Below the pieces are notes generated by a model that saw only the letters and a program-made list of their open reading frames with translations, was not told the origin of the DNA and made no database searches. From a bacterium (GTDB lineage: Bacteria; SAR324; XYD2-FULL-50-16), in NCBI GenBank assembly GCA_032250835.1, contig JAVVEA010000001.1:32001-96000 (forward strand): DNA of 64,000 nucleotides. The letters are read 5' to 3'. Position 1 is the stretch's first letter; each line of letters begins with the position of its first letter. Positions 9,795 through 33,177 of this stretch are shown piece by piece. Position numbers and translations under genes: made by a program.

Positions 9795-11495
9795 ATGCCT
9801 TACGATATTGTCATCGTTGGAGCCGGTGGCGGCGGAATGTACGCCGCCCTGGAAGCGATCCGCCGTAACCCGAAGTTGAACATTGCGATCATCTCGAAGG
9901 TTTACCCTACCCGCAGCCATACCTCGGCTGCCCAAGGCGGTGTGAACGCGGCTCTGGCGAACAAGCACAAAGACGACACCATCGACTTACACATCTTTGA
10001 CACCGTCAAGGGTAGCGACTACTTAGCCGATCAGGACTCCGCGACCTACCTCTGCGAACAGGCCCCGATCCTGATCCGCGAGCTTGAAAACCTGGGCGCG
10101 CCCTTTTCGCGTATGGACGACGGCACCATTGCCCAGCGCCCCTTTGGCGGCGCGAGCAAACACCGCTGCTGCTACTGCGCAGATAAAACCGGCCTGACGA
10201 TCTTACAGACGCTTTATGAGCAGTGCCTCCGGTACGGCATCAAGTTCTTCAACGAGTTTTTCTTGCTTTCTTTAGAGCAAGAAGATGGTCGTTGCAAAGG
10301 CGTGATTGCCTTGGAAATGAAGAACTCCAAGATCCATAAGTTCGACGCCAAGACGGTGATTTTCGCCACCGGCGGCTACGCCAAGATGTACTGGCATCGC
10401 AGTTCAAATGCCGCAGGCTTGACCGGTGACGGTGGCGCGGCCTGTTTGCGGGCGGGCATTCCGCTGAAAGATATGGAGTTTGTACAGTTCCACCCCACAG
10501 GCTTGCGTAAGTCGGGCTTGCTGGTCACCGAAGGTGCCCGTGGCGAAGGTGGTTATCTGCTCAACAAAGACGGCGAGCGCTTCATGAGCCGCTATGCCCC
10601 CGAAAAGATGGAATTGGGCCCCCGAGACTTGGTTTCTCGTAGTATTGAAACCGAAATCCGCGAAGGCCGCGGGTTTACCTCTACGGCTGGCGCATACATC
10701 AACCTAGACCTCACCCACCTGGGTGCCGACTTGATCAAAGAACGTTTGCCCCAGATCCGCGAGTTGTCCATCCAGTTTGAGGGTGTAGACCCGATCGTCG
10801 AGCCGATCCCGATCCGGCCCACGGCCCACTACTCTATGGGCGGCATCGACTGCAACACCGCATGCGAGACCGCCATCCAAGGCGTTTACGCTGTAGGCGA
10901 AGCCTCTTGTGTTTCGGTTCACGGGGCCAACCGCTTAGGCGGTAACTCGCTGCTGGAAATCTTAGTTTTTGGTAAGCGAGCGGGCCAAGAAGCGGCTGAT
11001 TTGGCAGCTAAGCTACCGACATCAGAGGTTCATAACTCTAAGTTGGAAGCTCAGGAGACACGGATCAAGAGTTTCTTCGGAAAAAGCCATGTAGAACGCT
11101 ACGATGTGATCCGTACCGAATTAGGCGACACCTTGGCCGATAACGTAGGCATCTACCGCTTTGAAGAGGCCATGAAAAAAGGCGTCGAAGAAGTGGCCAA
11201 CTTACGCGAACGCTTTAAGAAGGTTAAGGTCGCTGACCACTCCAAGGTCTTCAACACCAACCTGATGCAGGTCTTGGAATTAGGCAATATGCTCGATTTG
11301 GCCGCCTGTGTAGGGACCGGCGCTTTGGCCCGCGAGGAATCTCGCGGTTCCCATTCACGCACCGATTTCCCCACCAGGAACGACGAAAAATGGCATTGCC
11401 ATTCGATCTTCCAGATGGACGAAAAAGGTGATATTAGCCTGTCGACCAGAGAGGTCACCGGCGGCAAATACGAACTGCAGGAAAGGAAGTACTGA
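9795..11495 (+). CDS. sdhA: Succinate dehydrogenase/fumarate reductase flavoprotein subunit
   Basis: GAGGGG FAD motif, [10 protein letters not shown] (covalent-FAD His), [22 protein letters not shown]; no Tat signal. Confidence 0.95.
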
Positions 11496-12478
11496 TGGAG
11501 GATAAAAAAGAGATTACTTTTAACGTCCTCTGCTTCAACCCAGAAGTAGACGAAAAGCCTTATTTCAAGAGCTACGACATAGAATTGGAAAAGGGTATTA
11601 CCGTCTTACGGGCGTTAAACTACATCAAAGACCATGTAGACCAGAACCTGACCCACCGCTTCTTTTGCCAGGCCGGTATCTGCGGTTCCTGCGCGGTGCG
11701 CGTTAACGGCGTTTCGAAACTCGCTTGCACCACCCAGGTTTGGGATGAATTGGAAGTGAGCAAGTCCGCCGACACCATTGTGGTCGAGCCGCTAAACAAC
11801 TTCACGATCATGCGCGATCTGGTGGTTGATATCGAACCAATGGTCGAAAAACTGGTCAAATATAAGTCTTGGGTGGTTCCGGCCACCAAAGACGCTGATT
11901 TGGGCATCAAGGAATGTGACGTAAAGCCCGAGGAGTTTGAGCCCATCAACGCGGCGACTGACTGTATCCTTTGTGCTTCTTGTTACTCCGAATGCACCAT
12001 TACGGAAGGGTCAGAACAGCAATTCATCTCTCCTTTGGTGATGCTGCGGGCCTACCGCATGAACAAAGATACCCGCGACACCATCGGGGCCGAGCGCCTG
12101 AAGGTGTTGGTCGAAGACCATGGTATCTGGGACTGCACCCACTGCTACCGTTGTGTGGAGTCTTGCGTTAAAAATATCCCGATCATGGACGCCATCCAGG
12201 GCCTACGCGAGGAAACCTTCAAGCGCGGTATGACGAACAGCGAAGGTGCCAGGCACGCCAAGGTCTTCTTGGATGACACCATCAACCTGGGCCGCGCCAA
12301 CGAGGTTACCTTACCGCTGCGCACCTTGGGCCCGATCGGTTCACTAAGCCAGATTCCTTTCGCCATCAAGATGGGCCTTAAGGGACGGGTACCGCCGATT
12401 ATCCCGCACAAAATCGCCAGCCGCAAATCCGTTAAGCGTATGCTGACGGAAGTGATGAAAGACAGCAAACAGGACTAA
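11495..12478 (+). CDS. sdhB: SDH/FRD iron-sulfur subunit, type E (extended C-terminus)
   Basis: CQAGICGSC [2Fe-2S], CILCASCYSEC and CTHCYRCVESC (second 4Fe-4S type motif). Confidence 0.92.
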   Translation: MEDKKEITFNVLCFNPEVDEKPYFKSYDIELEKGITVLRALNYIKDHVDQNLTHRFFCQAGICGSCAVRVNGVSKLACTTQVWDELEVSKSADTIVVEPLNNFTIMRDLVVDIEPMVEKLVKYKSWVVPATKDADLGIKECDVKPEEFEPINAATDCILCASCYSECTITEGSEQQFISPLVMLRAYRMNKDTRDTIGAERLKVLVEDHGIWDCTHCYRCVESCVKNIPIMDAIQGLREETFKRGMTNSEGARHAKVFLDDTINLGRANEVTLPLRTLGPIGSLSQIPFAIKMGLKGRVPPIIPHKIASRKSVKRMLTEVMKDSKQD

Positions 12479-12504
12479 GCCTTAGGCAACGTTAAGAGAA
12501 AAAC

Positions 12505-13365
12505 ATGAAATACGCTTATTACATCAGCTGTGTAAACGAGTCGATGACCAAGGAATTGGACAAGTCTTTGTTCCTTTGGAACCAAGAATTGGGCATCGAA
12601 TTGGTCAAACTAGCTGACGGAACCTGCTGCGGCGGAAGTAACACCGACTTTGTCCACCCCAACGTGAACTTGGTCAACAACGCCCGCAATATCGTCTTGG
12701 CCGAGCAGATGGGCCTAGACTTGGTAACCAGCTGCAATACCTGCCTCTTAGGGATTCTACATGTTAAGCACCAGCTAGACACGGAGCCCAAAAAGAAGGA
12801 AATGGTCAACCACTACCTTGCCAAAGAAGGCATGGAATACAAGGGCACCAGCGCCGTCAAACACCTCTTGTGGGTGCTCAATGAAGACTATGGCCTAGAT
12901 AAGATCAAAGCCAAGGTCAAGAAGCCCCTGACGGGAGTCAAGTTTGCCAGCTTCTACGGCTGCCATATCCTGCGCCCTAGTGAGTTGATGGGCAAACATG
13001 ACGATCCCTACGCCCCTCGGTCTTTAGATATGTTGATCGAGGCCCTCGGCGGCGAGACCGTCGAATATGAGAGCAACAACAAGTGCTGTGGGTTCCACAC
13101 GCTGTTGGTGGCTCCTGAAGAAAGCTTTAAGGTTGGCGGTAAAGCCGTGGCCGAAGCCGTTCAGGCCGATGCCGACTACATCGTTACCCCCTGCCCGTTA
13201 TGTCATATGTCCTTGGATAGCTACCAAGACAAAGGCATGGCTAGCCAAGGCAAAAGTGGCTCTATGCCGATCCTTCACCTATCCCAAGCGGTCGGTTTGG
13301 CCCTAGGTTATAGCGAAAAGGAACTGGGGATCGACAAACATGTGGTCACCGCCCGCATTGCCTAA
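12505..13365 (+). CDS. CCG-domain (HdrB-like) anchor subunit of type E SDH/methylmenaquinol:fumarate reductase (MfrE-like)
   Basis: Two CCG domains: C..CCG..CNTC and GCH..CCG..CPLC. Confidence 0.88.
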
Positions 13366-16919: not shown

Positions 16920-17372
16920 ATGGAAACAACACCCAATGCCTCGCGCCGCGCCCTTTTGGGTGCTGGTGCTGCCGTCCTCGGGGTGGCCGCTTTGAGCGGG
17001 CCTCTGTCCGCTCAAATGGACCATTCCCAGCACGGCCCGAAAGGTGCCTATGCTCAATTGATTCAGGCAACCAATCACTGCCGGTTGACCGCTTTAGCTT
17101 GCGAAAAACACTGTATTTCGGCCCTTAAAACGGGCGATACGGAACTGGTAGATTGTTTAGCCAGCGTAACGGAGATGTTGCCGGTAATTGAGGCCACCAA
17201 TCGTTATGCAATCCTTGATGCCACCCGGCTGAAGGAGTTGGCCGCAGTTTGCGCCCAAGTCTGTGCCGACTGCGCCAAGACCTGCAAAAAGCATATCAAG
17301 GAGCATAAGGAGTGCAAAGACTGTTACGACTCCTGTCTAGAATGCGAAAAAGCCTGCAAAGCCGTCGCTTAG
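16920..17372 (+). CDS. Tat-exported four-helix-bundle copper storage protein (Csp1/DUF326-like)
   Basis: SRRALL twin-arginine signal; 13 Cys in CxxxC/CxxC helical arrays. Confidence 0.85.
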   Translation: METTPNASRRALLGAGAAVLGVAALSGPLSAQMDHSQHGPKGAYAQLIQATNHCRLTALACEKHCISALKTGDTELVDCLASVTEMLPVIEATNRYAILDATRLKELAAVCAQVCADCAKTCKKHIKEHKECKDCYDSCLECEKACKAVA

Positions 17373-17398: not shown

Positions 17399-17421
17399 AG
17401 GGGCCGAAAGGCCCCTTTTTT
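17399..17421 (+). terminator. Intrinsic terminator
   Basis: AGGGGCC-gaaa-GGCCCCT followed by a T run. Confidence 0.85.
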
Positions 17422-17878
17422 ATGGCCCTGGTAGGGCCCCGCCCCAGCGTTCGCCGTGGCAAAGGTAACAAGAGGGGCCCAGGTCTCCTTTTAGATCGAG
17501 GCCATGGCAGCCGGATAGGGCGCAGCTGGACTCTGGGCTATGCAGCCCTGCCGCGTGGAAATAGCCGCCGTACAGTAGATTATGCCCCGGTGCATAGCTG
17601 CGGTGGTCTTGATAATTATCGCTCCACTTGACTCCGTGGCAGCTATAACAAGAGGGCCCGTTACCGCCGGTTAAGTCGCTGCCATGGCAGCTCGAAGAAC
17701 TACAATAGCTATTGGGGTGTTTATAGTCTTCGCCGTGGTACACCCCGTCTTTATTTTTGCTGTGGTAGCTATCGTATCCCTGCCCGCTGTCTTCTTCGGT
17801 TTCCTTGGACTCATCCCCCGTAGGGTCTAAGTCAGACGCTTTGCAGCCTATAAGGCTCAAGGAGAGCAGCAGAACCAA
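17420..17878 (-). CDS. Tetraheme c lipoprotein (2 CX4CH + 2 CXXCH); start uncertain because of a T9 tract
   Basis: Lipobox LIGC; CSSSSCH, CYSCH, CALSGCH, CYLCH; paralog of 23150-23878. Confidence 0.8.
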   Translation of the reverse strand: MVLLLSLSLIGCKASDLDPTGDESKETEEDSGQGYDSYHSKNKDGVYHGEDYKHPNSYCSSSSCHGSDLTGGNGPSCYSCHGVKWSDNYQDHRSYAPGHNLLYGGYFHAAGLHSPESSCALSGCHGLDLKGDLGPSCYLCHGERWGGALPGP

Positions 17879-18017
17879 AAAAAAATTGGCTGATTCTTCA
17901 ATTTAACAAAAACTACAACGGGGTTTGCTTGGTGGATGGGCGTTGCCCTTAGACCCCAATAATCTAGCTAAACCTGCCCGCAAAGAAAAGGGAAAAAACC
18001 ACCGAAGCTTGTGAGTT

Positions 18018-18551
18018 CTATGCTTTAAGGGGCTTCTTCGAAAAGAGGGGCCAAAGAATCAAGAAGCTCGCTATCCCCACCCCCAATACGCTCATAGTCG
18101 CCGAAGGCGTGGCTAGCCAGGATAGGTTGGCCTTTGCTGCGCCAGTGCTGCCTAAAGAGGGAGCCAAACGCCCAGCGAGCATCCAACAGAGCGGATAAAA
18201 CAGGGCGCCAAAACCCAATAAAAAGGCCGTTAGGCTGCGGAGTTTTCGCTCAACCGGTACCAGCGCCAAGCCCAGAATCAAGACCAAGGCGGTGGTGCCC
18301 ATACCGGTGGCGTGGAAGTGGGCGCGTTTGATGTAGGTCCATGATTTGCCCAATATCTTGTCCATTTTGCTCTGGTCGCTATGGTAGACCTGTTCAAAGA
18401 CCGCCTGTGCATCGTCTCGGAGGCCTGCTTTGATGTCGTCTTCAAAGACTCCGAAGTAGATCCCAAGGCTAAAACCGTAGATCAGCGACAGCAAGGCCAG
18501 CATTGTACCAATGCGCATCTCACGTAAACCAGACAATAATACAGCCGACAT
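18018..18551 (-). CDS. Four-TM membrane protein with RAHFH motif
   Basis: Four hydrophobic segments, HxH motif, AAGGAG RBS. Confidence 0.75.
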   Translation of the reverse strand: MSAVLLSGLREMRIGTMLALLSLIYGFSLGIYFGVFEDDIKAGLRDDAQAVFEQVYHSDQSKMDKILGKSWTYIKRAHFHATGMGTTALVLILGLALVPVERKLRSLTAFLLGFGALFYPLCWMLAGRLAPSLGSTGAAKANLSWLATPSATMSVLGVGIASFLILWPLFSKKPLKA

Positions 18552-18666
18552 ACGACTCCTTTAGGTGAGGTCGGTTAATCCAAGTGTCCTAATGCAACCT
18601 AGGGGCTTAAAGCTAGCTCCCCGTTAAATTAAGGTAAAATTTTTGAAATAGGGTAATGTATCGGGA

Positions 18667-19338
18667 TTAGACCTTGTATTCGAGCATGTACCCAACGCCA
18701 CGGATGGTGTGGATGTATTCTTTGGGGGTTAATTCCTCTAGTTTCTTGCGGATGGATTTGATGTGAACATCCACCACATTGGTCGTCGGGTCGAAATCAT
18801 AGCCCCAAACGTTTTCCAGGATTTGGGTCCGGCTAACGACACATTCTTGGTTGCGTACCAAGTACTCTAAGATCGCATACTCTTTGGGGCGTAAAACCAG
18901 TTCTTTACCGGAGACATAAACCCGGTGGCTCTGGGTGTTAACTTCCAAACCGCCTACCTCCAGCTTGATCATCTCGGTTTGTTTGCGGCGCAGCAGGGCC
19001 CGGACCCGGGCAAGAAACTCTTCGAAGCTAAAGGGCTTGGTCATGTAGTCATCAGCGCCCATGTCCAGGCCTTTGACCTTGTCCGCCACGGTGATTTTGG
19101 CGGTCAACATCAAGACCGGAGTTTGTAACCCCCCTTCACGCAGGGCTTTGCAGACTTTAAATCCTTCCATTTTGGGCAGCATCACATCCATCACGATCAC
19201 ATCGTACTGCCCCGTTAAGCCATGTTCTAAGCCTGCTTCGCCGTCGGTGACGAGGTCAACCGTGTAGCGCTCTTCTTCTAGGCCTTTTTTAATGAAGTTG
19301 GCCACGCCTTGTTCGTCTTCGATCAATAAAATCCTCAT
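18667..19338 (-). CDS. OmpR-family response regulator (CusR/CzcR-like)
   Basis: IEDE, MDVMLP, GADDYMTKPF, VWGYDFD..TNVVDVHI, TIRGVGY; ATGA overlap with the upstream gene. Confidence 0.95.
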   Translation of the reverse strand: MRILLIEDEQGVANFIKKGLEEERYTVDLVTDGEAGLEHGLTGQYDVIVMDVMLPKMEGFKVCKALREGGLQTPVLMLTAKITVADKVKGLDMGADDYMTKPFSFEEFLARVRALLRRKQTEMIKLEVGGLEVNTQSHRVYVSGKELVLRPKEYAILEYLVRNQECVVSRTQILENVWGYDFDPTTNVVDVHIKSIRKKLEELTPKEYIHTIRGVGYMLEYKV

Positions 19339-20027
19339 GGGGTCCTTAATTGCTTATTTTTGATCTCTGCGCAACCGAAGAAGCCCTGCTCCATCAACAC
19401 GGTGATGTTGTCCTCGGCGAGCAGTTTGGCCGCCGTTTGGGCAGAGATTTTATTGTCTTTGTTTTCTGTATAGGTTTCGCAGAAAAATACCTTAAACTTA
19501 ACCTCTAAATCATCTTTCACCTTCATCAATCCAGCCCGGTAGGGCTTAACGTCAAACTCGGACTGCTGGATGGTGAACTGGCCGGTGACTTTCACTACCG
19601 GGGGGATATATTGGAAGTGGGTGCTGATTTCTAAAGGGCGCTTGACGCCATGCATTTCTATTTCACCGACTACCTTCTTGGGTTGTTCGGCCGGCTTGAA
19701 GTGGTCTAAATCGACCACAATGGTCGGGTAGGTGGTGGCGTCCATGTAGCCGGGTTTGTTGAGCACGTCCTCTACCATGGGGAGGTCGAATTTTAGGTCC
19801 TTAAACCGGAGCGTCAACCGCCCGGTATACAAACCATGTTCCTCCAGCAGTTCCCCCTCTTGGCGGGTTGCTTCCCCTTTAAAGTCAAAAAAATTGGTTT
19901 TGCCCGCAACCTCGATATAGCCCTTTTGGAGAATCCGGTAGATCTCGTGCCCTTCCTCTTCTTCGGCGGCCCAGAGGGACCCCGCCATCAAGCATAGGCC
20001 AAAGATCAGGGTGGTCGTCGCTTTCAT
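19335..20027 (-). CDS. YceI-like periplasmic lipid/quinone-binding protein with C-terminal extension
   Basis: Signal peptide, MDATTYPTI, GEIEMHGVKRP, FTIQQSEFDV. Start at 20027 overlaps the stop of the 16-heme gene (ATGA). Confidence 0.75.
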   Translation of the reverse strand: MKATTTLIFGLCLMAGSLWAAEEEEGHEIYRILQKGYIEVAGKTNFFDFKGEATRQEGELLEEHGLYTGRLTLRFKDLKFDLPMVEDVLNKPGYMDATTYPTIVVDLDHFKPAEQPKKVVGEIEMHGVKRPLEISTHFQYIPPVVKVTGQFTIQQSEFDVKPYRAGLMKVKDDLEVKFKVFFCETYTENKDNKISAQTAAKLLAEDNITVLMEQGFFGCAEIKNKQLRTP

Positions 20028-21484
20028 TTGGTCTCCGGAGCGGCAAAGTCGCCGAAGCGGTGGGTCCGTTTCAAGCGTTCCTTGCGTTCTTCGTCCGTCA
20101 GGGCCTCCTTGCGGGGGCCATACTTCTTCTCTCGGTAGTCCCAGAGGTCGCCAAAATGCTCGTTGTGGCATTCTACACAGGCCTCTCGGACCTTTTTATA
20201 GGTTACGCTCTGGTGCTCTTGCTTGTGACAGGTAGCGCAGTTGACGGTGCGGAACATAGGGTCCGGGCCGATGGGTTGCCCCTGTTTGTCAAGCCAAGCC
20301 CCCTCCATAGCGGACCGTACCGCGTAGTGACAGCCTTCGCAGCTGGCTTTTTCGCCCATCAGGTACTGTCCCTTGGGGTGGCAGTCTTTACACTTGACTT
20401 GGGAATGTAGCTGCTTGATAGGGAAGTCGGTCTTGTCGTGCTTAAACTCCTTTCCCCACTTTGCCGAGAGGTCATGACAGCGGCTACAGGTATCCGGAGC
20501 AAACTGCGCCTGATGCGGGTCTTTGTGGCAATCGGTGCACAGGGAAAAGCCCTTGCGCTTAAAGTCTTTATGGTCCCGGCTCGTATGGCACTTTTCGCAG
20601 TCCACCCGCTTGTGTACCCCCACCAATTTGAACCGCGTTTTTTGGTGGTCAAAGCCCTTAGCTTCTTTGGGGTCTAACATCTTAGACCAGTCTTCGGGGC
20701 TGTGGCAGCTAGCGCACTGCTCGCCGCTGCGTCCCTGGTGGGGGTCGGCGTGGCAGGTGCTACACTGCTGGCCCAGCTTTTCGAAGGGCGCAAAGTCCGG
20801 GTGCTTTTCGTCTTTGTGGTGGCAGGCTATACAGGTCAGCTTGCGGTGTTTGCCCCGCAGCTTAAAGTCCGATTGTTTTTCGTGGTCAAATTTGGTCAGG
20901 CTCCAGGCTTGGTCCGTATGGCAACTGCTGCATTGCTGGTCTTGAAACTGGGGTCCATGTTCCTTCCCGTGGCAAGACAAACAGTCTTCGGTTAAGCCTA
21001 AGAAGGTCTCCCCTTCGCGCTTGCGCTGGTCGATTTTCAGGCTGCGGACGGCTTCTGACTGGTATTTGGGCTGGTGGCATTCCTCGCACTTAAGGGGCTG
21101 GTGTTTGCCGGTGAGGTCGAGCTTGAGCTTGGAGTGATCCACCTGAGCGGGGTCAAAAAGCTTACCTTCGCGGCCCTTGTGGTCGGTATGGCAGCTTAGG
21201 CAGTCTTTGGATCGATTGGCTTCGAGTCCGTGCCAGCCAAGACGCTGGTCGATGCGGGATTTGATCTCCTGGTGGCATTCGAGGCACAAGAGGTCGCTCA
21301 CGCCCTTGTTGAGCGTATGGCATTGCATACAACCCAGCGTGGTCTCTAGGTAAAAATGGCTTTTAGAGAGGGGGCCGGGGCTGAGCATGTCGCCCAGCTT
21401 TTCCACCATGTTTTTATCCTGCGCCCAACCGGGCAGGGCCCAAAAAAGAAAGCCCAGCAGCAGCAGCCCACGTTTAATGGTCAT
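20024..21484 (-). CDS. 16-heme periplasmic cytochrome c with c3/c7-like triheme repeats
   Basis: 16 CXXCH counted; Sec signal after the ATG at 21484 (RBS GAGGAGG); repeated (F/V)DH..F.L.G.H...CxxCH..CxxCH.DPH..CxxCH...W modules. Confidence 0.92.
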   Translation of the reverse strand: MTIKRGLLLLGFLFWALPGWAQDKNMVEKLGDMLSPGPLSKSHFYLETTLGCMQCHTLNKGVSDLLCLECHQEIKSRIDQRLGWHGLEANRSKDCLSCHTDHKGREGKLFDPAQVDHSKLKLDLTGKHQPLKCEECHQPKYQSEAVRSLKIDQRKREGETFLGLTEDCLSCHGKEHGPQFQDQQCSSCHTDQAWSLTKFDHEKQSDFKLRGKHRKLTCIACHHKDEKHPDFAPFEKLGQQCSTCHADPHQGRSGEQCASCHSPEDWSKMLDPKEAKGFDHQKTRFKLVGVHKRVDCEKCHTSRDHKDFKRKGFSLCTDCHKDPHQAQFAPDTCSRCHDLSAKWGKEFKHDKTDFPIKQLHSQVKCKDCHPKGQYLMGEKASCEGCHYAVRSAMEGAWLDKQGQPIGPDPMFRTVNCATCHKQEHQSVTYKKVREACVECHNEHFGDLWDYREKKYGPRKEALTDEERKERLKRTHRFGDFAAPETK

Positions 21485-22148
21485 GGCCCTCCTCGGACTC
21501 TCCAAGCTGCAAGCTGTGGTGTTCTTTGACATAAGAAATCGGCACCACTCCGTGGATGATCCCCATAAACCCCTTGCGGGTGCTGGGGTTGATGGTGGCC
21601 ATAAAGATATGTCCGCTCAGCAGGCCAATGGACCCCAAGGCGATTAGGGTATGGCTCCAACGCGGAAGCATGCCCTGCGGGAAGAGCCACAGCCAGATAC
21701 CGGTGGCCTGAAGGGTCAAGCTGATCCCCATCATCAAAAGGCTATTGATCTTTTGGCCCATGTTAAACTTACCGGCCGCTACATGCAGCTTTTTGGGCTG
21801 GGCTTTGATCCACTCGATGTCTCGTTTTTCTATGGTCAAGATTTGCCGCAAGTTATCTAAAATCGTGCGGGTGTTGCCAATAATACTCACCAAGGGCGGG
21901 GCAAGGATCAACAAAATGCCAAAGAGCTTGTGCAAGTCGCTGATAAACTCGCTGCGCTCTTGCAGGAAAAGACCCTGAACGGCTAAAGCCAAACCGCTGG
22001 CTAAGAGCACCAAGAAAGGCAGCCCATGGCCCCAATGCAGCAAGATTTCGGTTTTGGTGAACCGCAGAAAGGTCTTGCCCGGCTGCACGGGAGGCCGGAA
22101 CCCCTCGAGCTGATCTTCTAAGTGTTCGATTTGATCACCGATGGACAT
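21474..22148 (-). CDS. Diheme cytochrome b, FdnI/Ni-hydrogenase cytochrome b-like
   Basis: LLHWGH, LHKLFG, GKFNMGQK, WSH...GHIFMA; four TM helices. Confidence 0.88.
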   Translation of the reverse strand: MSIGDQIEHLEDQLEGFRPPVQPGKTFLRFTKTEILLHWGHGLPFLVLLASGLALAVQGLFLQERSEFISDLHKLFGILLILAPPLVSIIGNTRTILDNLRQILTIEKRDIEWIKAQPKKLHVAAGKFNMGQKINSLLMMGISLTLQATGIWLWLFPQGMLPRWSHTLIALGSIGLLSGHIFMATINPSTRKGFMGIIHGVVPISYVKEHHSLQLGESEEGHDH

Positions 22149-22150
22149 GG

Positions 22151-23140
22151 CTATATCCTGTTCTGCTGCAAGAAAATTTGTTGGCCTAAGCTGACACGGC
22201 TATCTCTGCGCACCAGTCGAACTTCAAAAAATTCGGCTCGACCCAACAAACTCCGCGAAAAGGTAAAAACCTGCTCATAAGTTTCGCCGGCTTTGATGAA
22301 GTCTTTGTTTTCAGCGTGAAAGACCCGTTGCTGCTCTTCGATCACCTGCCCAGAAGCCGACTTCAGGGAAACAATCAGGTCCACCGCCTTAAATCCAAAG
22401 ATCCCTGCCGGAACGCCGTGGGGGATACGGTGGGACAGGCGCAGCGAGATCGGCAGGCCCCTTTCGGTTTTAGGGAGGAGTTGGTGGGTCGCCGTGAACC
22501 AAGGGGCTTCGCCTGCTGGAGCTTGAGGGAGCGCGTCGAAGGTGTGTTTCTTGGTATCCATGCGCCAGTGAGCATATTGCATGATGCCCTTGACGATCAA
22601 CTTGCGGTAGGCCGCGGGCATGTGGCAATCCTGGCAGGTTTGAAGCTCTTTGCCCTGGGCTTCCAGGCGCTTTTCGGTGGCTTTCCATTGCTCGAAGTGG
22701 GCTTCGTGGCAAGTGCCGCAAAGCTTACTCTCCAAGAAATAGGGATCGCTCATCTTGACGTAGTGGGCGGGCAGAACAAAGTGTGGGCCGCCAATTTCGC
22801 CGTCAGGGGTCAGGTGGCAGGTCACACAATTGACCCCTTCCTTGGCGTGTTCTTGGCGCAGGGTGACTTTGTCGGTCCCATAGATTGGCATGGCCCGGTG
22901 GCAAGCCAAACATTTTTCAACCTGGTAGTCGTCCGTTTCCTTGCGGAAGGCCTCGGAAATCCAGGCCTTGGCGTGGCCGCTTTCCTTCCACTCTTCATAT
23001 TCGTTGAAGTGACACTCACCGCAACCTTCAGAAGAAAAACTATTGGGCGGAGCTTCCACTATCTCGCTGTGGAGGAAACAGCCACTTAAGCTAAAGGCAA
23101 CCAGCGAGATTAAGAGTGCCTTAAACAGCCTTTGGTTCAA
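22151..23140 (-). CDS. Pentaheme c554/c552-like lipoprotein with beta-rich C-terminal domain
   Basis: Lipobox LSGC; CGECH, CLACH, CVTCH, CGTCH, CQDCH; EW..SGHA motif. Confidence 0.88.
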   Translation of the reverse strand: MNQRLFKALLISLVAFSLSGCFLHSEIVEAPPNSFSSEGCGECHFNEYEEWKESGHAKAWISEAFRKETDDYQVEKCLACHRAMPIYGTDKVTLRQEHAKEGVNCVTCHLTPDGEIGGPHFVLPAHYVKMSDPYFLESKLCGTCHEAHFEQWKATEKRLEAQGKELQTCQDCHMPAAYRKLIVKGIMQYAHWRMDTKKHTFDALPQAPAGEAPWFTATHQLLPKTERGLPISLRLSHRIPHGVPAGIFGFKAVDLIVSLKSASGQVIEEQQRVFHAENKDFIKAGETYEQVFTFSRSLLGRAEFFEVRLVRRDSRVSLGQQIFLQQNRI

Positions 23141-23149
23141 CGTGGTCCC

Positions 23150-23878
23150 TTATTTAGCCGGGGCTAGGTTATCGTTGTCACCATCGGCCCACTCAGCACC
23201 GTGGCAGCGGTAGCAACTAGGGGCACCGGTGGTGGCATCGCCGGTGAGGCTGGCTCCGTGACAGGAAACACAATTGGTGTAGGGGTTATTCTTGCCTGAA
23301 CCGTGCATCACTCCGTCTTCGCTGTCATTGTGTGGGTAGCTGCTGTAAAGCCAACGAGCACCGTGGCATTCGTAACAGCTAGGCTCGGTTGTGCTGCCGC
23401 CTTTTAGGTCCGACCCATGGCATTCGGTGCAGCTGCTTTCGGGGGTATAAAGCCCGGTGGCGTGGTAATAGCTGCCTTTAAGCTCCGTATGGCTCTCTAA
23501 AGCGGTCCATTTGTCTCCGTGGCAGCTGTAACAGCTCGGTCGGCTGCGCTTGCCGGTCAGTGCGGTGCCGCCATGACATTCAGAGCAATTGTTCTTAGCG
23601 CTGAAGTAGCCGTGCTTGTGCATGACCCCGCTTTTGTTGATCTGGTGTTCCGACTTGTCCCACATCACGCCGTGGCAGTCATAACAGCCGGGAATCCAGC
23701 CGTTGCCTTTGAGGGTGATGCCGTGGCAGGCCGTACAGTCCTTAGCGCCTTGATAGAGCTTTTTGCCATGCTCTGCGCCGTCCAGGTCGATGTTGTGTGA
23801 GGTGATCCCTTCCTTACAGCCAGCCATAGCTAGCGCCAGGAAAAGAAACCCCACAATGGCTAAAATTGAAGTCCGCAT
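23150..23878 (-). CDS. Octaheme c lipoprotein built of four tandem diheme repeats
   Basis: Lipobox MAGC after the ATG at 23878; 8 CXXCH. Confidence 0.9.
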   Translation of the reverse strand: MRTSILAIVGFLFLALAMAGCKEGITSHNIDLDGAEHGKKLYQGAKDCTACHGITLKGNGWIPGCYDCHGVMWDKSEHQINKSGVMHKHGYFSAKNNCSECHGGTALTGKRSRPSCYSCHGDKWTALESHTELKGSYYHATGLYTPESSCTECHGSDLKGGSTTEPSCYECHGARWLYSSYPHNDSEDGVMHGSGKNNPYTNCVSCHGASLTGDATTGAPSCYRCHGAEWADGDNDNLAPAK

Positions 23879-24441
23879 ACTAAGCTGCCTCCGATCAGGC
23901 CCCCCCAAGAGTTTACAATGCCGTCACAGGTGACTAGGTCCCAAGACATACTTCCGCGCAACAGCAGCGCGCCATAGTGGATATCTTTAGCGGTATAAAA
24001 GGGGCTAGGGTCGCCCAACTGATTCCCGCCAGAAACCTGTAAGTCCTCAGTCATCTCCGCGAACCCGTAGCCGATACCCGGCCCAAAGCTAAAGCCGCCG
24101 ATGTCCTTTTCTAAAAAGTAGCTGAATTCGTAGGCGATCAGCTGGACCGTAACGGCCGCAGTCAACCCCCGGTCACTCAGGTTACCGGAGCCCGACAGGT
24201 TATGGTAGGTGAAGGAAGTTTCTTGGTTGTCAAAGCCAATAAGCCCCAGGTCGAGACCCTCGGTTTTGTAACTGGCAATCAGGTCTAGGCCGAACAGCGG
24301 CATGATCTGCGTGGTGACGCCCGTACCGGCTTGTAGCTTGATATCGCCAGCCTGGACCGGGCTTGACCAAGTTAACAAAAGGCAGGTGGCCAAGGTGGTC
24401 AGCCAAGCCGTAGGGCGCATCTTCAAGGAGTTTTTCTTCAT
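23860..24441 (-). CDS. Small putative outer-membrane beta-barrel protein
   Basis: Sec signal (VQA), alternating hydrophobic strands rich in G/F/Y, C-terminal Phe (GLQF). Confidence 0.65.
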   Translation of the reverse strand: MKKNSLKMRPTAWLTTLATCLLLTWSSPVQAGDIKLQAGTGVTTQIMPLFGLDLIASYKTEGLDLGLIGFDNQETSFTYHNLSGSGNLSDRGLTAAVTVQLIAYEFSYFLEKDIGGFSFGPGIGYGFAEMTEDLQVSGGNQLGDPSPFYTAKDIHYGALLLRGSMSWDLVTCDGIVNSWGGLIGGSLVCGLQF

Positions 24442-24528
24442 TGGGGTCTACCGATCAAGCGTCACAGGGTCTTAGGAGTGGTTGGTTCCGTCAATGGTGC
24501 CGCAGGCGTACTGCACGTGACTGCGGGT

Positions 24529-24582
24529 ACTTTAGGCCCCTTAAATGAAGCGAAAGTGAACCGTAGATGAAATGCAGTTCAT
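24529..24582 (-). promoter_or_regulatory. OmpR/PhoB-type direct-repeat promoter of the multiheme operon
   Basis: On + strand: ATGAAG-N5-GTGAAC-N5-ATGAAA-N5-TTCAT (24545-24582). Minus-strand -10 TAAAGT (24529-24534) lies 10 bp from the proximal repeat. Confidence 0.75.
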
Positions 24583-24617
24583 CTTAAGGCCAAGACTAAC
24601 ATAAACTGCCTATAGGA

Positions 24618-25871
24618 TCAAAGAGAATTGATCTGGGTAGCTTTACCTGATTGGGGTAGCAAGATTTCCGCAGTAAAAAGGCCCGTATCGTCGATGCCGA
24701 GGCGTAACTTGCCTCCATGCGAAAGGACAATATAATTCACAATATTTAAGCCTAATCCTTTGCCGGAAGCTTGGAATGCCTCGGTATTCGATCCCCTAAA
24801 GAAAGGGGTGAGCAATTCCTTGGGCTTCATACCCTGGGTGGCCTTGGATTGGTTGGTTAGGGTTAGGCGCACGAAAGCCTCCTTGCGCTCGGCCGCTAAG
24901 TGGATCGAACCGTTTTCCACGCTATATTTTATGGCATTATCCAACAGGTTCCCTAAGGCCCGAATCATTAAAGTGGGGTCACAAAACAATTCAATCTCTC
25001 CGCCGCCTGCGTCAATTAATTTCAAAGATTTTGCCTCGATGCGCGGGCGCAGTTCTTTGAGGAGGTCGGCCAGCATCTCATGTACCGGAACCCGCTCTTT
25101 CAGCAGGCTTAAGGACTGAAAATTAGCACTAGCCAACAGGTAAAGGTCCTGCAGTAAGGCGATCACCCGGTTGGTCTCTTTTAGCCCTAAGGCAATGAAT
25201 TCGCGGTATTCCTCGGGTTTACGTTCTTTGCGTAAGGAAACCTCCAAATTGCCTTTGATGGAAGTCAAGGGAGAGTGCAATTCGTGGGTTACGTTAGAAC
25301 TGAAGTTTTCTTGGAACCTAAAGGCTTCGGTAATGGGCCGCATGGCCAGGATCACCAGTAGTCGGCCTAAGATGAAGCTCAAGAGGACAATTCCGGGGCT
25401 AGAAAGCAAAACCAACCGCAAAAAGCGCTGTTCGTAATTCAGCAGTTGCGTGATCGGCTCGGCGATGCGGCCTAAGTAGGTTTTATCTAACCTAAAGTAG
25501 TGGATTAGGTAGCGTTTATCCCCAAAGTTAACGACCTCAAAGACTTGGTCGTCTTGATCGGCCTGGCGGAATAACCTTTGGTTGATTGGTAAGGTGAAAT
25601 AAACTGAATTGGAGGTTTGGCTGAGCAGCCGCCCATCATTGCTGAAAATCTGGAAAACTTCGTCTTCGTTGATCTGGGTGAACTCCTCAAAGTCATTGAG
25701 GCGGTAATGATCCACAAACTCTTCGCGGCCATCTTCTACGATGTCGGCCTTGAGGGTGTCTAAGATGGATTCGTGAAGATAAAAGTAGCTGATCGAAAGC
25801 ACCAACACGCTAAAGGAGATGATCCCCAGTGTGAACAACGCGGTTAGGCGATTTTTGGTCTCTTGGATCAT
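24618..25871 (-). CDS. Membrane sensor histidine kinase (OmpR-pairing, CusS-like H-box)
   Basis: Two TM helices, FSSNVTHELHSPL, NLLDNAIKYS, GKGLGL. Confidence 0.92.
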   Translation of the reverse strand: MIQETKNRLTALFTLGIISFSVLVLSISYFYLHESILDTLKADIVEDGREEFVDHYRLNDFEEFTQINEDEVFQIFSNDGRLLSQTSNSVYFTLPINQRLFRQADQDDQVFEVVNFGDKRYLIHYFRLDKTYLGRIAEPITQLLNYEQRFLRLVLLSSPGIVLLSFILGRLLVILAMRPITEAFRFQENFSSNVTHELHSPLTSIKGNLEVSLRKERKPEEYREFIALGLKETNRVIALLQDLYLLASANFQSLSLLKERVPVHEMLADLLKELRPRIEAKSLKLIDAGGGEIELFCDPTLMIRALGNLLDNAIKYSVENGSIHLAAERKEAFVRLTLTNQSKATQGMKPKELLTPFFRGSNTEAFQASGKGLGLNIVNYIVLSHGGKLRLGIDDTGLFTAEILLPQSGKATQINSL

Positions 25872-25874
25872 GGG

Positions 25875-26462
25875 CTACTGGGGGATTCGGACATAGTCTT
25901 CAGAATAGACGCCGGCTGCGGCCCGTTGGTGGCAGGCCACACAGTTGGAAAGGCTCTTGATCGCCGGGCGAGCGATTACGGTGGCGCTGACCTCGTTGTG
26001 TTCGTGCCTAAAATAGGGCAATTCGGTGATGCGCATCGGTGCTTCCCCTTGGATCGACCGAACTAGCTTTTGGGCCCGGCCACTGCTTGAGGTTTCGGCC
26101 GCATTGCCCAGCAGATAGCCGCGCACCTGTGCCAGATTGGCGGCATCTAGAACGGCGTCGTCGCCGAAGTGGTCTTCTAAATGGGCCAATACCCGTTCCC
26201 AACTTTGGCTAGGTAGTAGTTCAGCCTGATAGGCAAAATGGCAAGCGCCACATTCGCTCAGGTAAACTTGGTTGGTGATGGGTTTGATGTGGCGTTCGCT
26301 GATCTCCTCTTTCTCGCGGTGTCCCTCATGGGGAGCTTCCTCAAAGAACATCTCCATAAACCCTTCGCGCTCGCCCCGCTCAATGGAATCTGCCCAAAGG
26401 GGGGCGGATAATGAAAGACAACCGAGAAAGGCCAAAAGAAACCAGAGGAGCGAACGATTCAT
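25875..26462 (-). CDS. Diheme cytochrome c (DHC family)
   Basis: YLSECGACH.AY..ELLP..SW...LEDHFG, RITELPYF..EH, SNCVACH. Confidence 0.9.
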   Translation of the reverse strand: MNRSLLWFLLAFLGCLSLSAPLWADSIERGEREGFMEMFFEEAPHEGHREKEEISERHIKPITNQVYLSECGACHFAYQAELLPSQSWERVLAHLEDHFGDDAVLDAANLAQVRGYLLGNAAETSSSGRAQKLVRSIQGEAPMRITELPYFRHEHNEVSATVIARPAIKSLSNCVACHQRAAAGVYSEDYVRIPQ

Positions 26463-26475
26463 AAATCCTTAGAGG

Positions 26476-26916
26476 CTATAGGGAATAGATATACTCAAGA
26501 AAATCCCCTTGTTCAGTGGCGGTGCAGCTGCGCTCAAAGGTCCACTTGCAATTACGCCGGAACCATTTCTTGATTTTTTTTTCTTTAGTGAAGCGCTCGC
26601 GGTTCACAGCTGGCGACAGTGGGTCGATGGGCTTGCCGGTAACGGCATGTTTACTGGGCAACATGGGGTTGTCTTTGTGGCAAGTGGCGCAGGTACGCTT
26701 GTCGCCGTCTTCGCTATCGATATGTTCTTTAAAGTAGAGGGTTTTGCCGCGTTCAGCCGAAAAGGCGGTGAAGGCTGGGTCCTCTTGTTTCGCTTCTTTA
26801 GCTAATTCCTGCATAAAAGCGGTCACCGTCGGGTTTTTGGGGATCGCAGCCCAGACAGTTTGGGTTGAAAGTAGAGCGATAAGTCCAGCGGCAAGACCAG
26901 TAAACAACGTCTTCAT
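26476..26916 (-). CDS. Sphaeroides heme protein-like monoheme cytochrome c (SHP/DUF1924)
   Basis: FSAERG, CATCH, TGKPIDPLSPAVN.ERFT...KWFRRNC.....R.CT. Confidence 0.9.
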   Translation of the reverse strand: MKTLFTGLAAGLIALLSTQTVWAAIPKNPTVTAFMQELAKEAKQEDPAFTAFSAERGKTLYFKEHIDSEDGDKRTCATCHKDNPMLPSKHAVTGKPIDPLSPAVNRERFTKEKKIKKWFRRNCKWTFERSCTATEQGDFLEYIYSL

Positions 26917-26978
26917 CGGGTTTTCCTACAAATTTTAGGTTGCTCTCTCCGCCGAAAAAGCCTTTATGCGAAGGCCTC

Positions 26979-27032
26979 AATGTAAACGGCAAAGATGAAG
27001 AATCAATTAAGCCTGAATGAACAAAATTTCAT
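26979..27032 (-). promoter_or_regulatory. OmpR/PhoB-type direct-repeat promoter of the shp-dhc-kinase operon
   Basis: On + strand: ATGAAG-N5-ATTAAG-N5-ATGAAC-N5-TTCAT (26995-27032). Minus-strand -10 TACATT (26979-26984) lies 10 bp away. Confidence 0.75.
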
Positions 27033-31733: not shown

Positions 31734-33177
31734 ACAGGCAATGAAAGTACTGTGGGCCTCGTTGCTGGCCGCAATGATAGCAGCACCGGTAATGGCCCAA
31801 GTCCAAGCTTCCGGTCGTTTGTTACAGCAAAAAACCTATAATTTTGCCACCGAAACCGACCCGGCTGCGGGCGGGAAAGTAGGGCAGCAAGATACGGGTA
31901 ACTTTATTGAAGACAAGCTCTTTAAAATCGTGGCCGACACCTACGCCCGTCGCGATGAGCATGCTTTCTTGAAGCTTTATGAGTTTTTCTTAAAAAGCTT
32001 CCCGAACAGCCAACGACGAGCGGAGCTGGACCAGTACCGCGACAAGTTCTTCTATTCTGAAAACCTCAATATTTATAAATTGGGCGGTGCCTTGGTGGAT
32101 CTGCAAGCGCCGGAGTCTAAAAATTGGGACCAGTTGTCCGACCTGTTCCGCCAACTACGCCAAAAAGGCATGAAATTGGTGCAGGTTGAAGTCGCCCAAG
32201 AGGCGGGAGAACAGATCTTCTTGTTCGCTAAAGGCGGCGATAAAAGGGGCTATTTTTTCAAAAACGACAACGGCCCCCTGTTAGATGATATTTTGGACCG
32301 TATGTCCGAATTGGCTCATGAAAACGACATGAAGCTGCTGGCTTCCTTGCCATTGCGCGATTTGCCGTCCTTGGACCGCCAACCGGTGATGTTGATGGAT
32401 TCTTCTTATAACCCCATCAACCATGACCTACGTCTCAACAATAAGTTGGATTTAACCCATCCGGCCGCTTTGCCCTACTTGTTGAACTTTACCGAAGCCT
32501 TAGCCAAAACCAAGGTAGATGGCATCATCATCAAAGACGACTTCACCTACGCCCCTCAAGAGGGCTTTTCGGAAATGTCGATCCGGCGGTTTAAACTGGA
32601 CACCGGGATTAGCTTAGACCTACAGAACCTTGTGGTTTCCTACCCAGCCAACGGCGATTTTGGCCTGGTCGGCAAGGAAGAGTATCAGGTTTTCTTGGAA
32701 TGGCGCGCCCGGCAGATCCGCCAATTGTTGTGGGATTTTGTTGAAGCCAGCCGAGAATTTCGCGCCGAGTTCACGATTGGTATTGAGCTAACCCCTGAGA
32801 TGCTCGATAGCAACGAACAATCGGCCTTTATGCGATACGGAACCTCGGTGCGTATGCTTTGGGACCTACCGGTTGATTTCCAGGTGTTAAAGTGGAGCTA
32901 CCAAGACGGCAACAATGAGAGTGACCCAGAGGTTTACTTCGGCGCGTTAAGCCGGCTGCAAGAGCTGATGGACGCGGATCGTAAAGTTTATTTGAAGGTC
33001 CCCTTGAACGACCAGACCCGCAACGTGATCATGTTAAACCAACGGATCAGGCGTCATTTGGTCTGGATGTCTGAACATGAGGGCCTAGAACAGGCCATTG
33101 GACCCATCGACCGGCGTAAGGATTGGGACTTCCTACACCACCGAGTGGTTGAAAAATTAGAAGTTCCAGGCCAGTAA
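31723..33177 (+). CDS. Exported PgaB C-terminal (GHL13/GH153)-like TIM-barrel protein
   Basis: Signal peptide; GYFFKN, LAHENDMKL, VDGIIIKDDF...EGFS, EWRA.QI resemble the PgaB C-domain. Confidence 0.6.
   Translation: MKSKQAMKVLWASLLAAMIAAPVMAQVQASGRLLQQKTYNFATETDPAAGGKVGQQDTGNFIEDKLFKIVADTYARRDEHAFLKLYEFFLKSFPNSQRRAELDQYRDKFFYSENLNIYKLGGALVDLQAPESKNWDQLSDLFRQLRQKGMKLVQVEVAQEAGEQIFLFAKGGDKRGYFFKNDNGPLLDDILDRMSELAHENDMKLLASLPLRDLPSLDRQPVMLMDSSYNPINHDLRLNNKLDLTHPAALPYLLNFTEALAKTKVDGIIIKDDFTYAPQEGFSEMSIRRFKLDTGISLDLQNLVVSYPANGDFGLVGKEEYQVFLEWRARQIRQLLWDFVEASREFRAEFTIGIELTPEMLDSNEQSAFMRYGTSVRMLWDLPVDFQVLKWSYQDGNNESDPEVYFGALSRLQELMDADRKVYLKVPLNDQTRNVIMLNQRIRRHLVWMSEHEGLEQAIGPIDRRKDWDFLHHRVVEKLEVPGQ

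Follow-up and report, generated by a model that had tools for sequence, protein, structure and literature searches.

Several described systems come close to the locus reported here. Porin-cytochrome conduits combine multiheme cytochromes with a large barrel (26 strands in MtrB; PMC12133095), and the lipoprotein multiheme of PCC3 is of variable length (PMC10734462). CbcL of Geobacter joins a HydC/FdnI-like cytochrome b to a nonaheme cytochrome c and serves acceptors below -0.1 V, with lower yield (PMC6295460, 10.1101/2021.04.15.440034). Operons for a sphaeroides heme protein (SHP), a diheme cytochrome c (DHC) and a cytochrome b come with a kinase/regulator pair, the route proposed for them leads from quinol through cytochrome b and DHC to SHP, and SHP itself binds O2 and NO (PMC2909971). 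The polysulfide reductase MccSep works in the periplasm; four of its hemes are bis-His, and heme 2 has Cys239, beside Sec325, as a ligand (PMC13510729). Features of these systems meet in one locus of a SAR324 bacterium, within a stretch of 64,000 nucleotides (positions 32,001 to 96,000 of contig JAVVEA010000001.1, assembly GCA_032250835.1) that we call the window and to which unlabelled coordinates refer. The locus would encode a two-component-controlled, quinone-linked electron chain built from three modules, and our preferred explanation, which falls a little short of being probable, is a low-potential chain that spans the envelope and ends at surface cytochromes anchored by a small barrel.

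The ORF list of the window gives 12 co-oriented ORFs in 17420-26916, all on the minus strand, where a preliminary description had counted eleven. Those for SHP, DHC and a sensor kinase come first, followed by the core: an outer-membrane barrel, an octaheme lipoprotein (LP8), a pentaheme lipoprotein (LP5), a cytochrome b, a 16-heme cytochrome (MHC16), a YceI-like protein and a response regulator. From barrel through regulator the intergenic gaps are -19, +9, +2, -11, -4 and -4 nt (the value for MHC16 and YceI assumes a YceI-like start at ATG 20027, overlapping the MHC16 stop), and the tight coupling seen earlier is thereby borne out. Canonical CxxCH motifs in the locus number 34 (16+8+5+2+2+1); the 36 heme motifs previously claimed are reached only if two CX4CH motifs, found besides two CxxCH in the accessory lipoprotein LP4, are counted as well. 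Pfam and NCBIfam agree on the FdnI-like cytochrome b, YceI, DHC, DUF1924 (SHP), HisKA/HATPase and the OmpR-type regulator, and the Pfam search placed the barrel, LP4 and a four-helix membrane protein in no family. The GC content of the locus is that of the window, 0.50-0.55.

How far the gene set is conserved was followed in 88 genomes of the SAR324 phylum, 19 of them in one family, with G000 denoting the genome that holds the window. Full-length MHC16 homologs occur in 7/19 family genomes, from six genera, and one further family genome gave no more than a weak match, which lies in another cytochrome. Profiles of LP5, barrel and LP8 run over all 88 genomes found strong matches in the same seven, the barrel and LP8 profiles having no match in the other 81, and within the family the pattern of SHP is identical (7/19). 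The core order, with a 13- or 16-heme cytochrome in the MHC16 place, is intact in 7/7 of these carriers and was not found in the 69 phylum genomes outside the family. Since it is kept in six other genomes at 36-86% protein identity, the cluster is not a product of chance, and the co-conservation expected of it holds. The genes for SHP, DHC and kinase lie upstream of the core in the 5/7 genomes whose contig reaches that far, the other two contigs breaking inside the kinase. A gyrB tree of 23 rows (G013, with a frameshifted gyrB, was left out) joins five carriers at 100/99 and leaves the position of G002 unresolved; the cluster is thus a case of vertical inheritance in one part of one family and not many independent cases. 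Named homologs of barrel and LP8 come from Candidatus Lambdaproteobacteria, which holds a 67%-identity homolog (L028), and from the SAR324 cluster, so that the window falls within SAR324 taken broadly as a phylum. A scan of a genome collection with MHC16 alone returned 1 locus, so small a return that the cytochrome b-MHC16 pair is poorly sampled outside SAR324. No description of the cluster or of the barrel-lipoprotein pair was found in the literature searched, where supplementary SAR324 or FeGenie-type gene tables could list them. The locus as a whole therefore appears to be undescribed, as the preliminary description had it, with the exception of its SHP-DHC/two-component front end, which is an operon type already known (PMC2909971).

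The link between cytochrome b and the long periplasmic cytochrome is supported by the sequences of both. The FdnI/HydC-type diheme cytochrome b (21474-22148) has H38, H73, H166, H180 and N129 invariant in 7/7 sequences, and these align with H18, H57, H155, H169 and N110 of FdnI, so that the four heme-ligand His and the quinone-site Asn expected of an FdnI-like protein are all kept. In the FdnI structure H169 and N110 make up the quinone site at the cytoplasmic heme. A quinone site on that side would suit the chain to low-potential partners: run outward, such a site would allow the proton motive force to drive quinol electrons onto an acceptor of low potential, and it would conserve energy when a strong periplasmic reductant feeds quinone. 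MHC16 (20024-21484) is built of three-heme repeats and predicted to be a wire in the periplasm; three genomes have the 16-heme form, and the other four, with one repeat fewer, have 13 hemes. Its conserved non-motif His number 15, 12 of them invariant and three in the extra repeat, and together with Met410, standing where a homolog in the metagenome locus L044 has His, they would account for all 16 distal ligands of a wire. Searches for solved structures found none like MHC16 or LP8 beyond generic heme repeats (0 matches with the single protein; best profile E 2.7e-7 and 1.6e-6). Directly downstream of an LP5 homolog, L044 encodes one protein of 743 residues that unites a cytochrome b part (hhalign 99.5%, 29% identity) with a 16-heme part, and this natural fusion supports the proposed step from cytochrome b to the 16-heme protein.

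At the other end of the proposed chain stands the barrel (23860-24441), a member of a lineage-specific family, whose AlphaFold2 model has eight strands at pLDDT 92. It most resembles OmpA (Z 16.3, rmsd 2.6, 130 aligned), OprF (16.1) and OmpW (15.6), at 9-10% identity to them. The MtrB/PioB porin family PF11854 has no match in the genome, which is 97% complete, and the barrel itself matches no Pfam or NCBIfam model; both agree with the small non-MtrB barrel read earlier from the sequence. Among 7,999 candidates scored, its homologs number 26 at 90% clustering. His155 and the pair Cys172/Cys189 are invariant, the barrel of the window ends in Phe, and mean column conservation is 0.57 in the outer loops, 0.70 in the upper strands and 0.29 in the periplasmic turns. 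In the model His155 sits slightly above the membrane belt, on its outer side, and would face out by strand alternation, the topology being that given by DSSP. Such clustering of conservation in outer loops and upper strands points to a docking partner outside.

Behind each of the 11 genomic copies of the barrel gene comes an LP8-family lipoprotein gene, overlapping it by 19 nt in ten cases and by 13 in one, so that in every copy the barrel adjoins multiheme genes that include a lipoprotein, as it does in porin-cytochrome conduits. In addition, for 12/26 barrel clusters the longest contig equals in size that of an LP8-family cluster, and source locus tags are consecutive for three barrel/LP8-family pairs. 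Four pairs stand alone, with 10, 10, 6 and 4 hemes (L023:8331-9850 on G000:C38, L036, L038 and L039), and no operator of the kind described below was found upstream of these. The last (L039:1504-2061, G013:C30) has a barrel that ends two residues early, a tetraheme lipoprotein as partner and the 13-nt overlap. LP8 (23150-23878) consists of four tandem diheme modules and has eight conserved non-motif His, two extra for each module; it is predicted to be a closed, all bis-His wire. Lipoproteins of the barrel-associated type have 4-12 hemes, an HGKKLY motif and 26-32 residues (mostly 27) between the lipid Cys and the first heme. The dependence is one-way: the barrel always comes with the lipoprotein, and LP8-type genes also occur without the barrel. 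A prediction of the barrel-LP8 complex scored 0.02 against a mark of 0.32 and, with no controls folded, speaks neither for nor against contact. A 398-aa gene beside an LP8 paralog on C39 was considered as a large porin partner and rejected, as it belongs to no family and occurs at 1/13 distinct barrel-less LP8-family places (15 loci).

LP5 (22151-23140), a lipoprotein with a C-terminal Ig-like domain, has the c552/MccSep fold. Its profile matches the pentaheme c552 of Thermochromatium tepidum (5ZE8, E 1.9e-11 and 4.6e-16) and MccSep (E 2e-9), and 5ZE8 also came top of 48,161 chains in a fold search (Z 10.6, rmsd 3.6, 130 aligned), made with a model from a 7-row alignment that has a mean pLDDT of 57, is poor outside the Ig domain and leaves heme-2 ligation unreadable. 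An alignment of 152 five-heme sequences comprised LP5 and 151/187 fetched homologs, those of unsuitable length or motif number having been removed. No more than four non-motif His come close to invariance in it (H56, H126, H199 and H241), and H148, Y189 and H191 are found in the 12 closest sequences alone. With four family-wide distal His for five hemes, heme 2 would be either open or closed by a clade-specific His. From its sequence LP5 is not an MccSep, but it is the best candidate for a catalytic end point, at heme 2. The earlier statement that the locus has no catalytic subunit was thus too strong, given that SHP binds O2 and NO and that LP5 has the MccSep fold with no family-wide distal ligand at heme 2.

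The Cys/Sec-free branch of the MccSep fold to which LP5 belongs comprises 265 clusters at E <= 1e-30. At 16 close LP5 loci elsewhere than in the cluster, the neighbour is a cytochrome b in 5 (the b6 type in 4, the fusion in 1) and another multiheme in 11. LP5 with cytochrome b and a long wire thus occurs elsewhere with neither barrel nor LP8, which makes the cluster one of at least two modules. In loci L040-L044 the LP5 homolog is accompanied either by split cytochrome b6/PetD-like genes and cytochromes of 10-11 hemes or by the fusion of cytochrome b and 16-heme protein; no Rieske gene was seen among those with split b6/PetD-like genes, and an aminotransferase class III gene lies upstream of the LP5 homologs in L041, L043, L044 and probably L040. 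In L047 and L049-L055 LP5 homologs are paired with a conserved triheme protein that has a cytochrome c'-like segment, and in L045 one precedes a cytochrome oxidase operon.

The SHP homolog (26476-26916; one heme; PF09086, E 7.5e-35) matches the solved structures of cytochrome c'' (1e8e, E 2e-16) and SHP (1dw0, E 4e-14). It has Asn122 at the sixth-ligand position and then Cys123 and Cys131, the Asn ligand and disulfide typical of SHP, and both the soluble DHC (25875-26462; PF09626, E 5.5e-40) and the kinase/regulator pair are adjacent, as in SHP operons. The kinase (24618-25871) has two membrane helices and, in its periplasmic sensor, acidic residues conserved as a patch (E51, D70 and E71); the SK1 motifs quoted in PMC2909971 were not seen in the sensor alignment. 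A gene for a cytochrome b-DHC chimera (cytB-mDHC) precedes shp in G002. Its counterpart in G000 is on another contig (C13) without an operator, and the cytochrome b of the cluster is of the different, FdnI-like type.

Both transcription units are preceded by a direct repeat with the consensus ATGAA-N6-TTCAT-N6-TT(C/A)AY-N6-TTCAT. Operator 1 (26995-27032, minus), upstream of shp-dhc-kinase, is ATGAA-N6-TTCAT-N6-TTAAT-N6-TTCAT with an 11-bp period, its first base being the 27032 at which the preliminary description had ended its region; operator 2 (24545-24582, minus), upstream of the barrel-to-regulator operon, is ATGAA-N6-TTCAT-N6-TTCAC-N6-TTCAT. Pentamers at an 11-bp period are typical of sites for the OmpR family, and to this family the regulator belongs (18667-19338; closest model CztR/SilR/CopR, below cut-off). 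The triple repeat occurs at 6 sites of the genome against 0.63 expected, other spacings giving 0-1. In relatives the full triple stands before the shp unit in 3/4 and before the barrel in 3/6; of the remaining sites one has two repeats, two have the first inverted pair only, and G010 has no match. A matrix trained on the nine relatives' sites only ranked operator 2 first (34.4) and operator 1 second (32.6) in G000, where 8 sites exceeded the best score of three shuffles (18.0). Six of the 8 lie before or beside genes for c-type cytochromes, among them an LP8 paralog and a decaheme, and in cluster genomes the pattern precedes 7/13 barrel-less LP8-family places. The regulator presumably binds the TTCAT repeats at both operators, and the conservation of the operator before both units and other cytochrome genes supports the autoregulation proposed in the preliminary description. 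A scan for sigma-70 promoters and terminators stayed at chance level (6 vs 5.8; 17 vs 13.5).

Some operator sites lie in other surroundings. The third-best (32.2; G000:C9:58072, plus) has no cytochrome gene behind it but an ABC transporter-like gene and genes for small membrane proteins. On G000:C42 (L024:7806-9343) the same operator is upstream of genes for a Pfam-less membrane protein and a decaheme with an MHC16-like N-terminus, and a similar pair occurs in G012 (L021:8405-9837), a genome without the main cluster. L129 and L142 (G002:C158) have three tandem genes for LP8-family lipoproteins with 7, 11 and 9 CxxCH behind an operator.

Taken together, these observations suggest how the locus might work. 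In the first module, SHP-DHC-kinase-regulator, the regulator would bind the TTCAT repeats and induce both units and several other cytochrome genes. The second, cytochrome b with the 13/16-heme wire and LP5, would act as a CbcL-like quinone:cytochrome c oxidoreductase with the wire crossing the periplasm, the partnership of cytochrome b and wire being supported by the fusion; the proton motive force would assist electrons leaving quinol outward, and a strong reductant would be needed for the inward direction. In the third, the barrel would anchor or present the length-variable, all-bis-His LP8 wire, most likely at the outer face, where LolA and the type II secretin that G000 encodes could place lipoproteins. 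The YceI-like protein (19335-20027; PF04264, E 2.4e-12) is divergent, with an invariant Cys pair in a C-terminal extension; quinone handling is known from the YceI family and is its probable role here. LP5 heme 2 and LP8 would be the end points of the chain, whose most likely job would be electron exchange, at the cell surface, with Fe or S species of low potential. The trans-envelope conduit of the preliminary description is supported only in part: its electron path and sidedness are predicted, and the quinol-outward direction that it gave is one option and not a deduction.

Several points weigh against this explanation. Eight-stranded barrels of the OmpA/OmpX type have no room for a heme protein, so a cytochrome could not sit inside this one, and no gene of the cluster explains how electrons would get through the bilayer of the outer membrane. 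The barrel has one invariant His only, it falls short of the at least 16 strands of a conduit barrel, and no MtrB/PioB porin takes its place. For seven LP8-type genes of full length, the flanking 1.5 kb hold no barrel gene. Barrel, YceI variant, SHP and DHC were found at 0/80 LP5 loci outside SAR324, many of which are short, and the second module can work without the third. Only seven genomes have the cluster, six of them probably of one clade. One way around the missing carrier, which we consider unlikely, is a conduit with no protein sheath: the first diheme module of LP8 would lie in or against the outer leaflet beside the barrel and meet LP5 inside, giving a continuous heme path from quinone to surface, with the barrel possibly an oligomer and the outward His155 possibly binding an extra heme.

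A chain that stays in the periplasm is possible as well, though doubtful. Quinol electrons would enter cytochrome b, move along MHC16 and reach both DHC-SHP and LP5, the latter an enzyme whose heme 2 is open or His-switched; the small soluble substrate would be polysulfide or another sulfur species, NO or O2, with the barrel as a small-solute channel or anchor and LP8 as a redox buffer on the inner side. The fold family of LP5 includes a periplasmic polysulfide reductase (PMC13510729), and its 152 sequences offer four family-wide distal His for five hemes; against this, both residues that MccSep uses in catalysis are missing from LP5, and heme 2 could be closed by His148 or His191, which do not vary among the 12 closest sequences. 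At close LP5 loci outside SAR324 a cytochrome b adjoins in 5/16 and a barrel in 0/16, OmpW-like barrels are among the closest folds, and shp-dhc in G000 has lost its adjacent cytochrome b, so that the one in the cluster could feed SHP. G000 has DsrAB, DsrMKJOP-like genes and a PhsA/Psr-like molybdoenzyme; PMC6018805 leaves it open in which direction sulfur metabolism runs in this group. In the same genome are one heme-copper oxidase, NiFe hydrogenases, a NapA-like molybdoenzyme and NrfAH-like tetrahemes (the labels Nap, Nrf, DsrMKJOP and cbb3 come from reading the sequences), and a bc1-type cytochrome b had no match. On G000:C40 (L025:2631-9877) an eleven-heme cytochrome lies directly upstream of a PhsA/Psr-like molybdoenzyme operon, which has sulfur-transport-like genes. 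What a purely periplasmic reductase leaves unexplained is the translational coupling of a 4-12-heme wire to a barrel conserved on its outward side, and the use of 13-16 hemes to reach an enzyme anchored in a membrane.

Quite unlikely, in our view, is an inward branch in which an Fe(II)-responsive regulon takes electrons through Cyc2, or from minerals through LP8, to the quinone pool. A gene for a Cyc2-like fused cytochrome-porin with the signature AXPXFARQT-CxxCH-PXL (G000:C10:28273-29508, minus; L150:8274-9509) suggests a potential for iron oxidation in the clade, and full-length homologs occur in 6/7 carriers against 0/12 other family genomes; by the gyrB tree, the six are probably a single clade (five joined at 100/99), so the co-occurrence amounts to one event and was rejected as independent evidence. 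Moreover, none of the 6 cyc2-like genes has the operator upstream, and no RuBisCO match was obtained in the Cyc2/cluster genomes searched. Two papers report that the cytochrome b/monoheme/diheme cluster Slit_1321-1324 of Sideroxydans is Fe(II)-responsive (PMC8788666) and that SHP operons are induced in Ferrigenium under nitrate-reducing Fe(II) oxidation (10.64898/2026.01.22.701106), and an acidic patch such as that of the kinase sensor would fit an iron signal. Even so, an FdnI-type site run inward would oppose the membrane potential, a poor fit with uphill transfer from a high-potential iron oxidase. Least likely, and improbable, is that the hemes have no dedicated substrate and store charge during oxic-anoxic shifts or guard the envelope against O2, NO or metals. 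In favour are the operator's presence before a decaheme and a monoheme cytochrome and before short LP8-type genes scattered in the genome, the heavy-metal two-component models that come nearest to regulator and kinase, and a Csp1 copper-storage gene that converges on the cluster. Relatives showed no such gene next to their clusters, however, and six non-regulatory genes in fixed order and tightly coupled suggest that their products form a defined complex.

The remaining features of the locus and its surroundings are accessory or lie outside it. Downstream of the regulator are a four-helix membrane protein with an HxH motif, of no named family (18018-18551), and the lipoprotein LP4 (17420-17878), whose two CX4CH...CxxCH modules resemble those of LP8; a four-helix protein is at this position in 3/7 genomes and an LP4-like short gene in 3/7, and both are accessory. 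The Csp1-family gene (16920-17372, plus) is separated from the cluster by a terminator-like hairpin (17399-17416), and its membership was rejected, with none beside the cluster in relatives. Further off (9795-13365, plus), SdhA/SdhB-like genes are followed by one for a CCG-domain protein where a membrane cytochrome b anchor would be expected.

Surveys of extracellular electron transfer rely on barrels of the MtrB, OmbB or Cyc2 type. An eight-stranded barrel obligately paired with a modular multiheme lipoprotein, and tied through operon and operator to a CbcL-like quinone oxidoreductase, would widen the known forms of envelope electron chain and would give a testable metabolism to a lineage in which the direction of sulfur cycling is unresolved (PMC6018805). 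Were the unsheathed path real, the length of its wire would be tuned by diheme modules (4-12 hemes), and it would be missed by gene screens for large porins. Even if no electrons leave the cell, the locus adds a new barrel-lipoprotein family and a widespread Cys/Sec-free branch of the MccSep fold, and through its operator the SHP operon, itself little understood, becomes part of a wider set of co-regulated cytochrome genes.

Set beside the known systems, the locus is like each in part. With the SHP-DHC-cytochrome b operons of Rhodobacter, Shewanella and Sideroxydans (Slit_1321-1324) it shares an SHP with the Asn ligand and disulfide, a soluble DHC and a linked kinase/regulator; here, however, kinase and regulator are set apart by six additional genes, and the available part of PMC2909971 names no multiheme partner. 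LP5 shares with MccSep (ExtKL) and the c552 of 5ZE8 five hemes, the Ig-like C-terminal domain, four conserved distal His and the H-x-x-P-x-G loop, but lacks the Cys239 loop of MccSep (after heme 4), has no Cys beyond its lipobox and heme motifs, and has Ile247, with no in-frame stop, at the position of the Sec325 that follows GHSIPDG in MccSep; it also has an insertion after heme 5, is lipid-anchored and is about 100 residues shorter. CbcL and CbcBA of Geobacter, likened by architecture alone, also combine a HydC/FdnI-type diheme b with a periplasmic multiheme c, fused in L044 as well. In this locus, by contrast, the b has four helices with all four His on one chain, the partner has 13-16 hemes of another repeat family, and one operon adds lipoprotein cytochromes and a barrel. 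The barrel has the fold of OmpA, OmpX and OmpW (Z 15-16) and their protruding extracellular sheet, but is 9-13% identical to them, has no Pfam match, is obligately coupled by gene to a multiheme lipoprotein and is conserved on its outer, not its inner, face. Finally, the operon logic is that of the porin-cytochrome conduits (MtrAB/MtoAB, OmbB-OmaB, PCC3 and Uet) and Cyc2, with an inner-membrane quinone partner, a long periplasmic multiheme, an outer-membrane barrel and a lipoprotein multiheme, and it is carried out with a barrel of 8 strands, against 26 in MtrB and 16 modelled for Cyc2, inside which no cytochrome fits.

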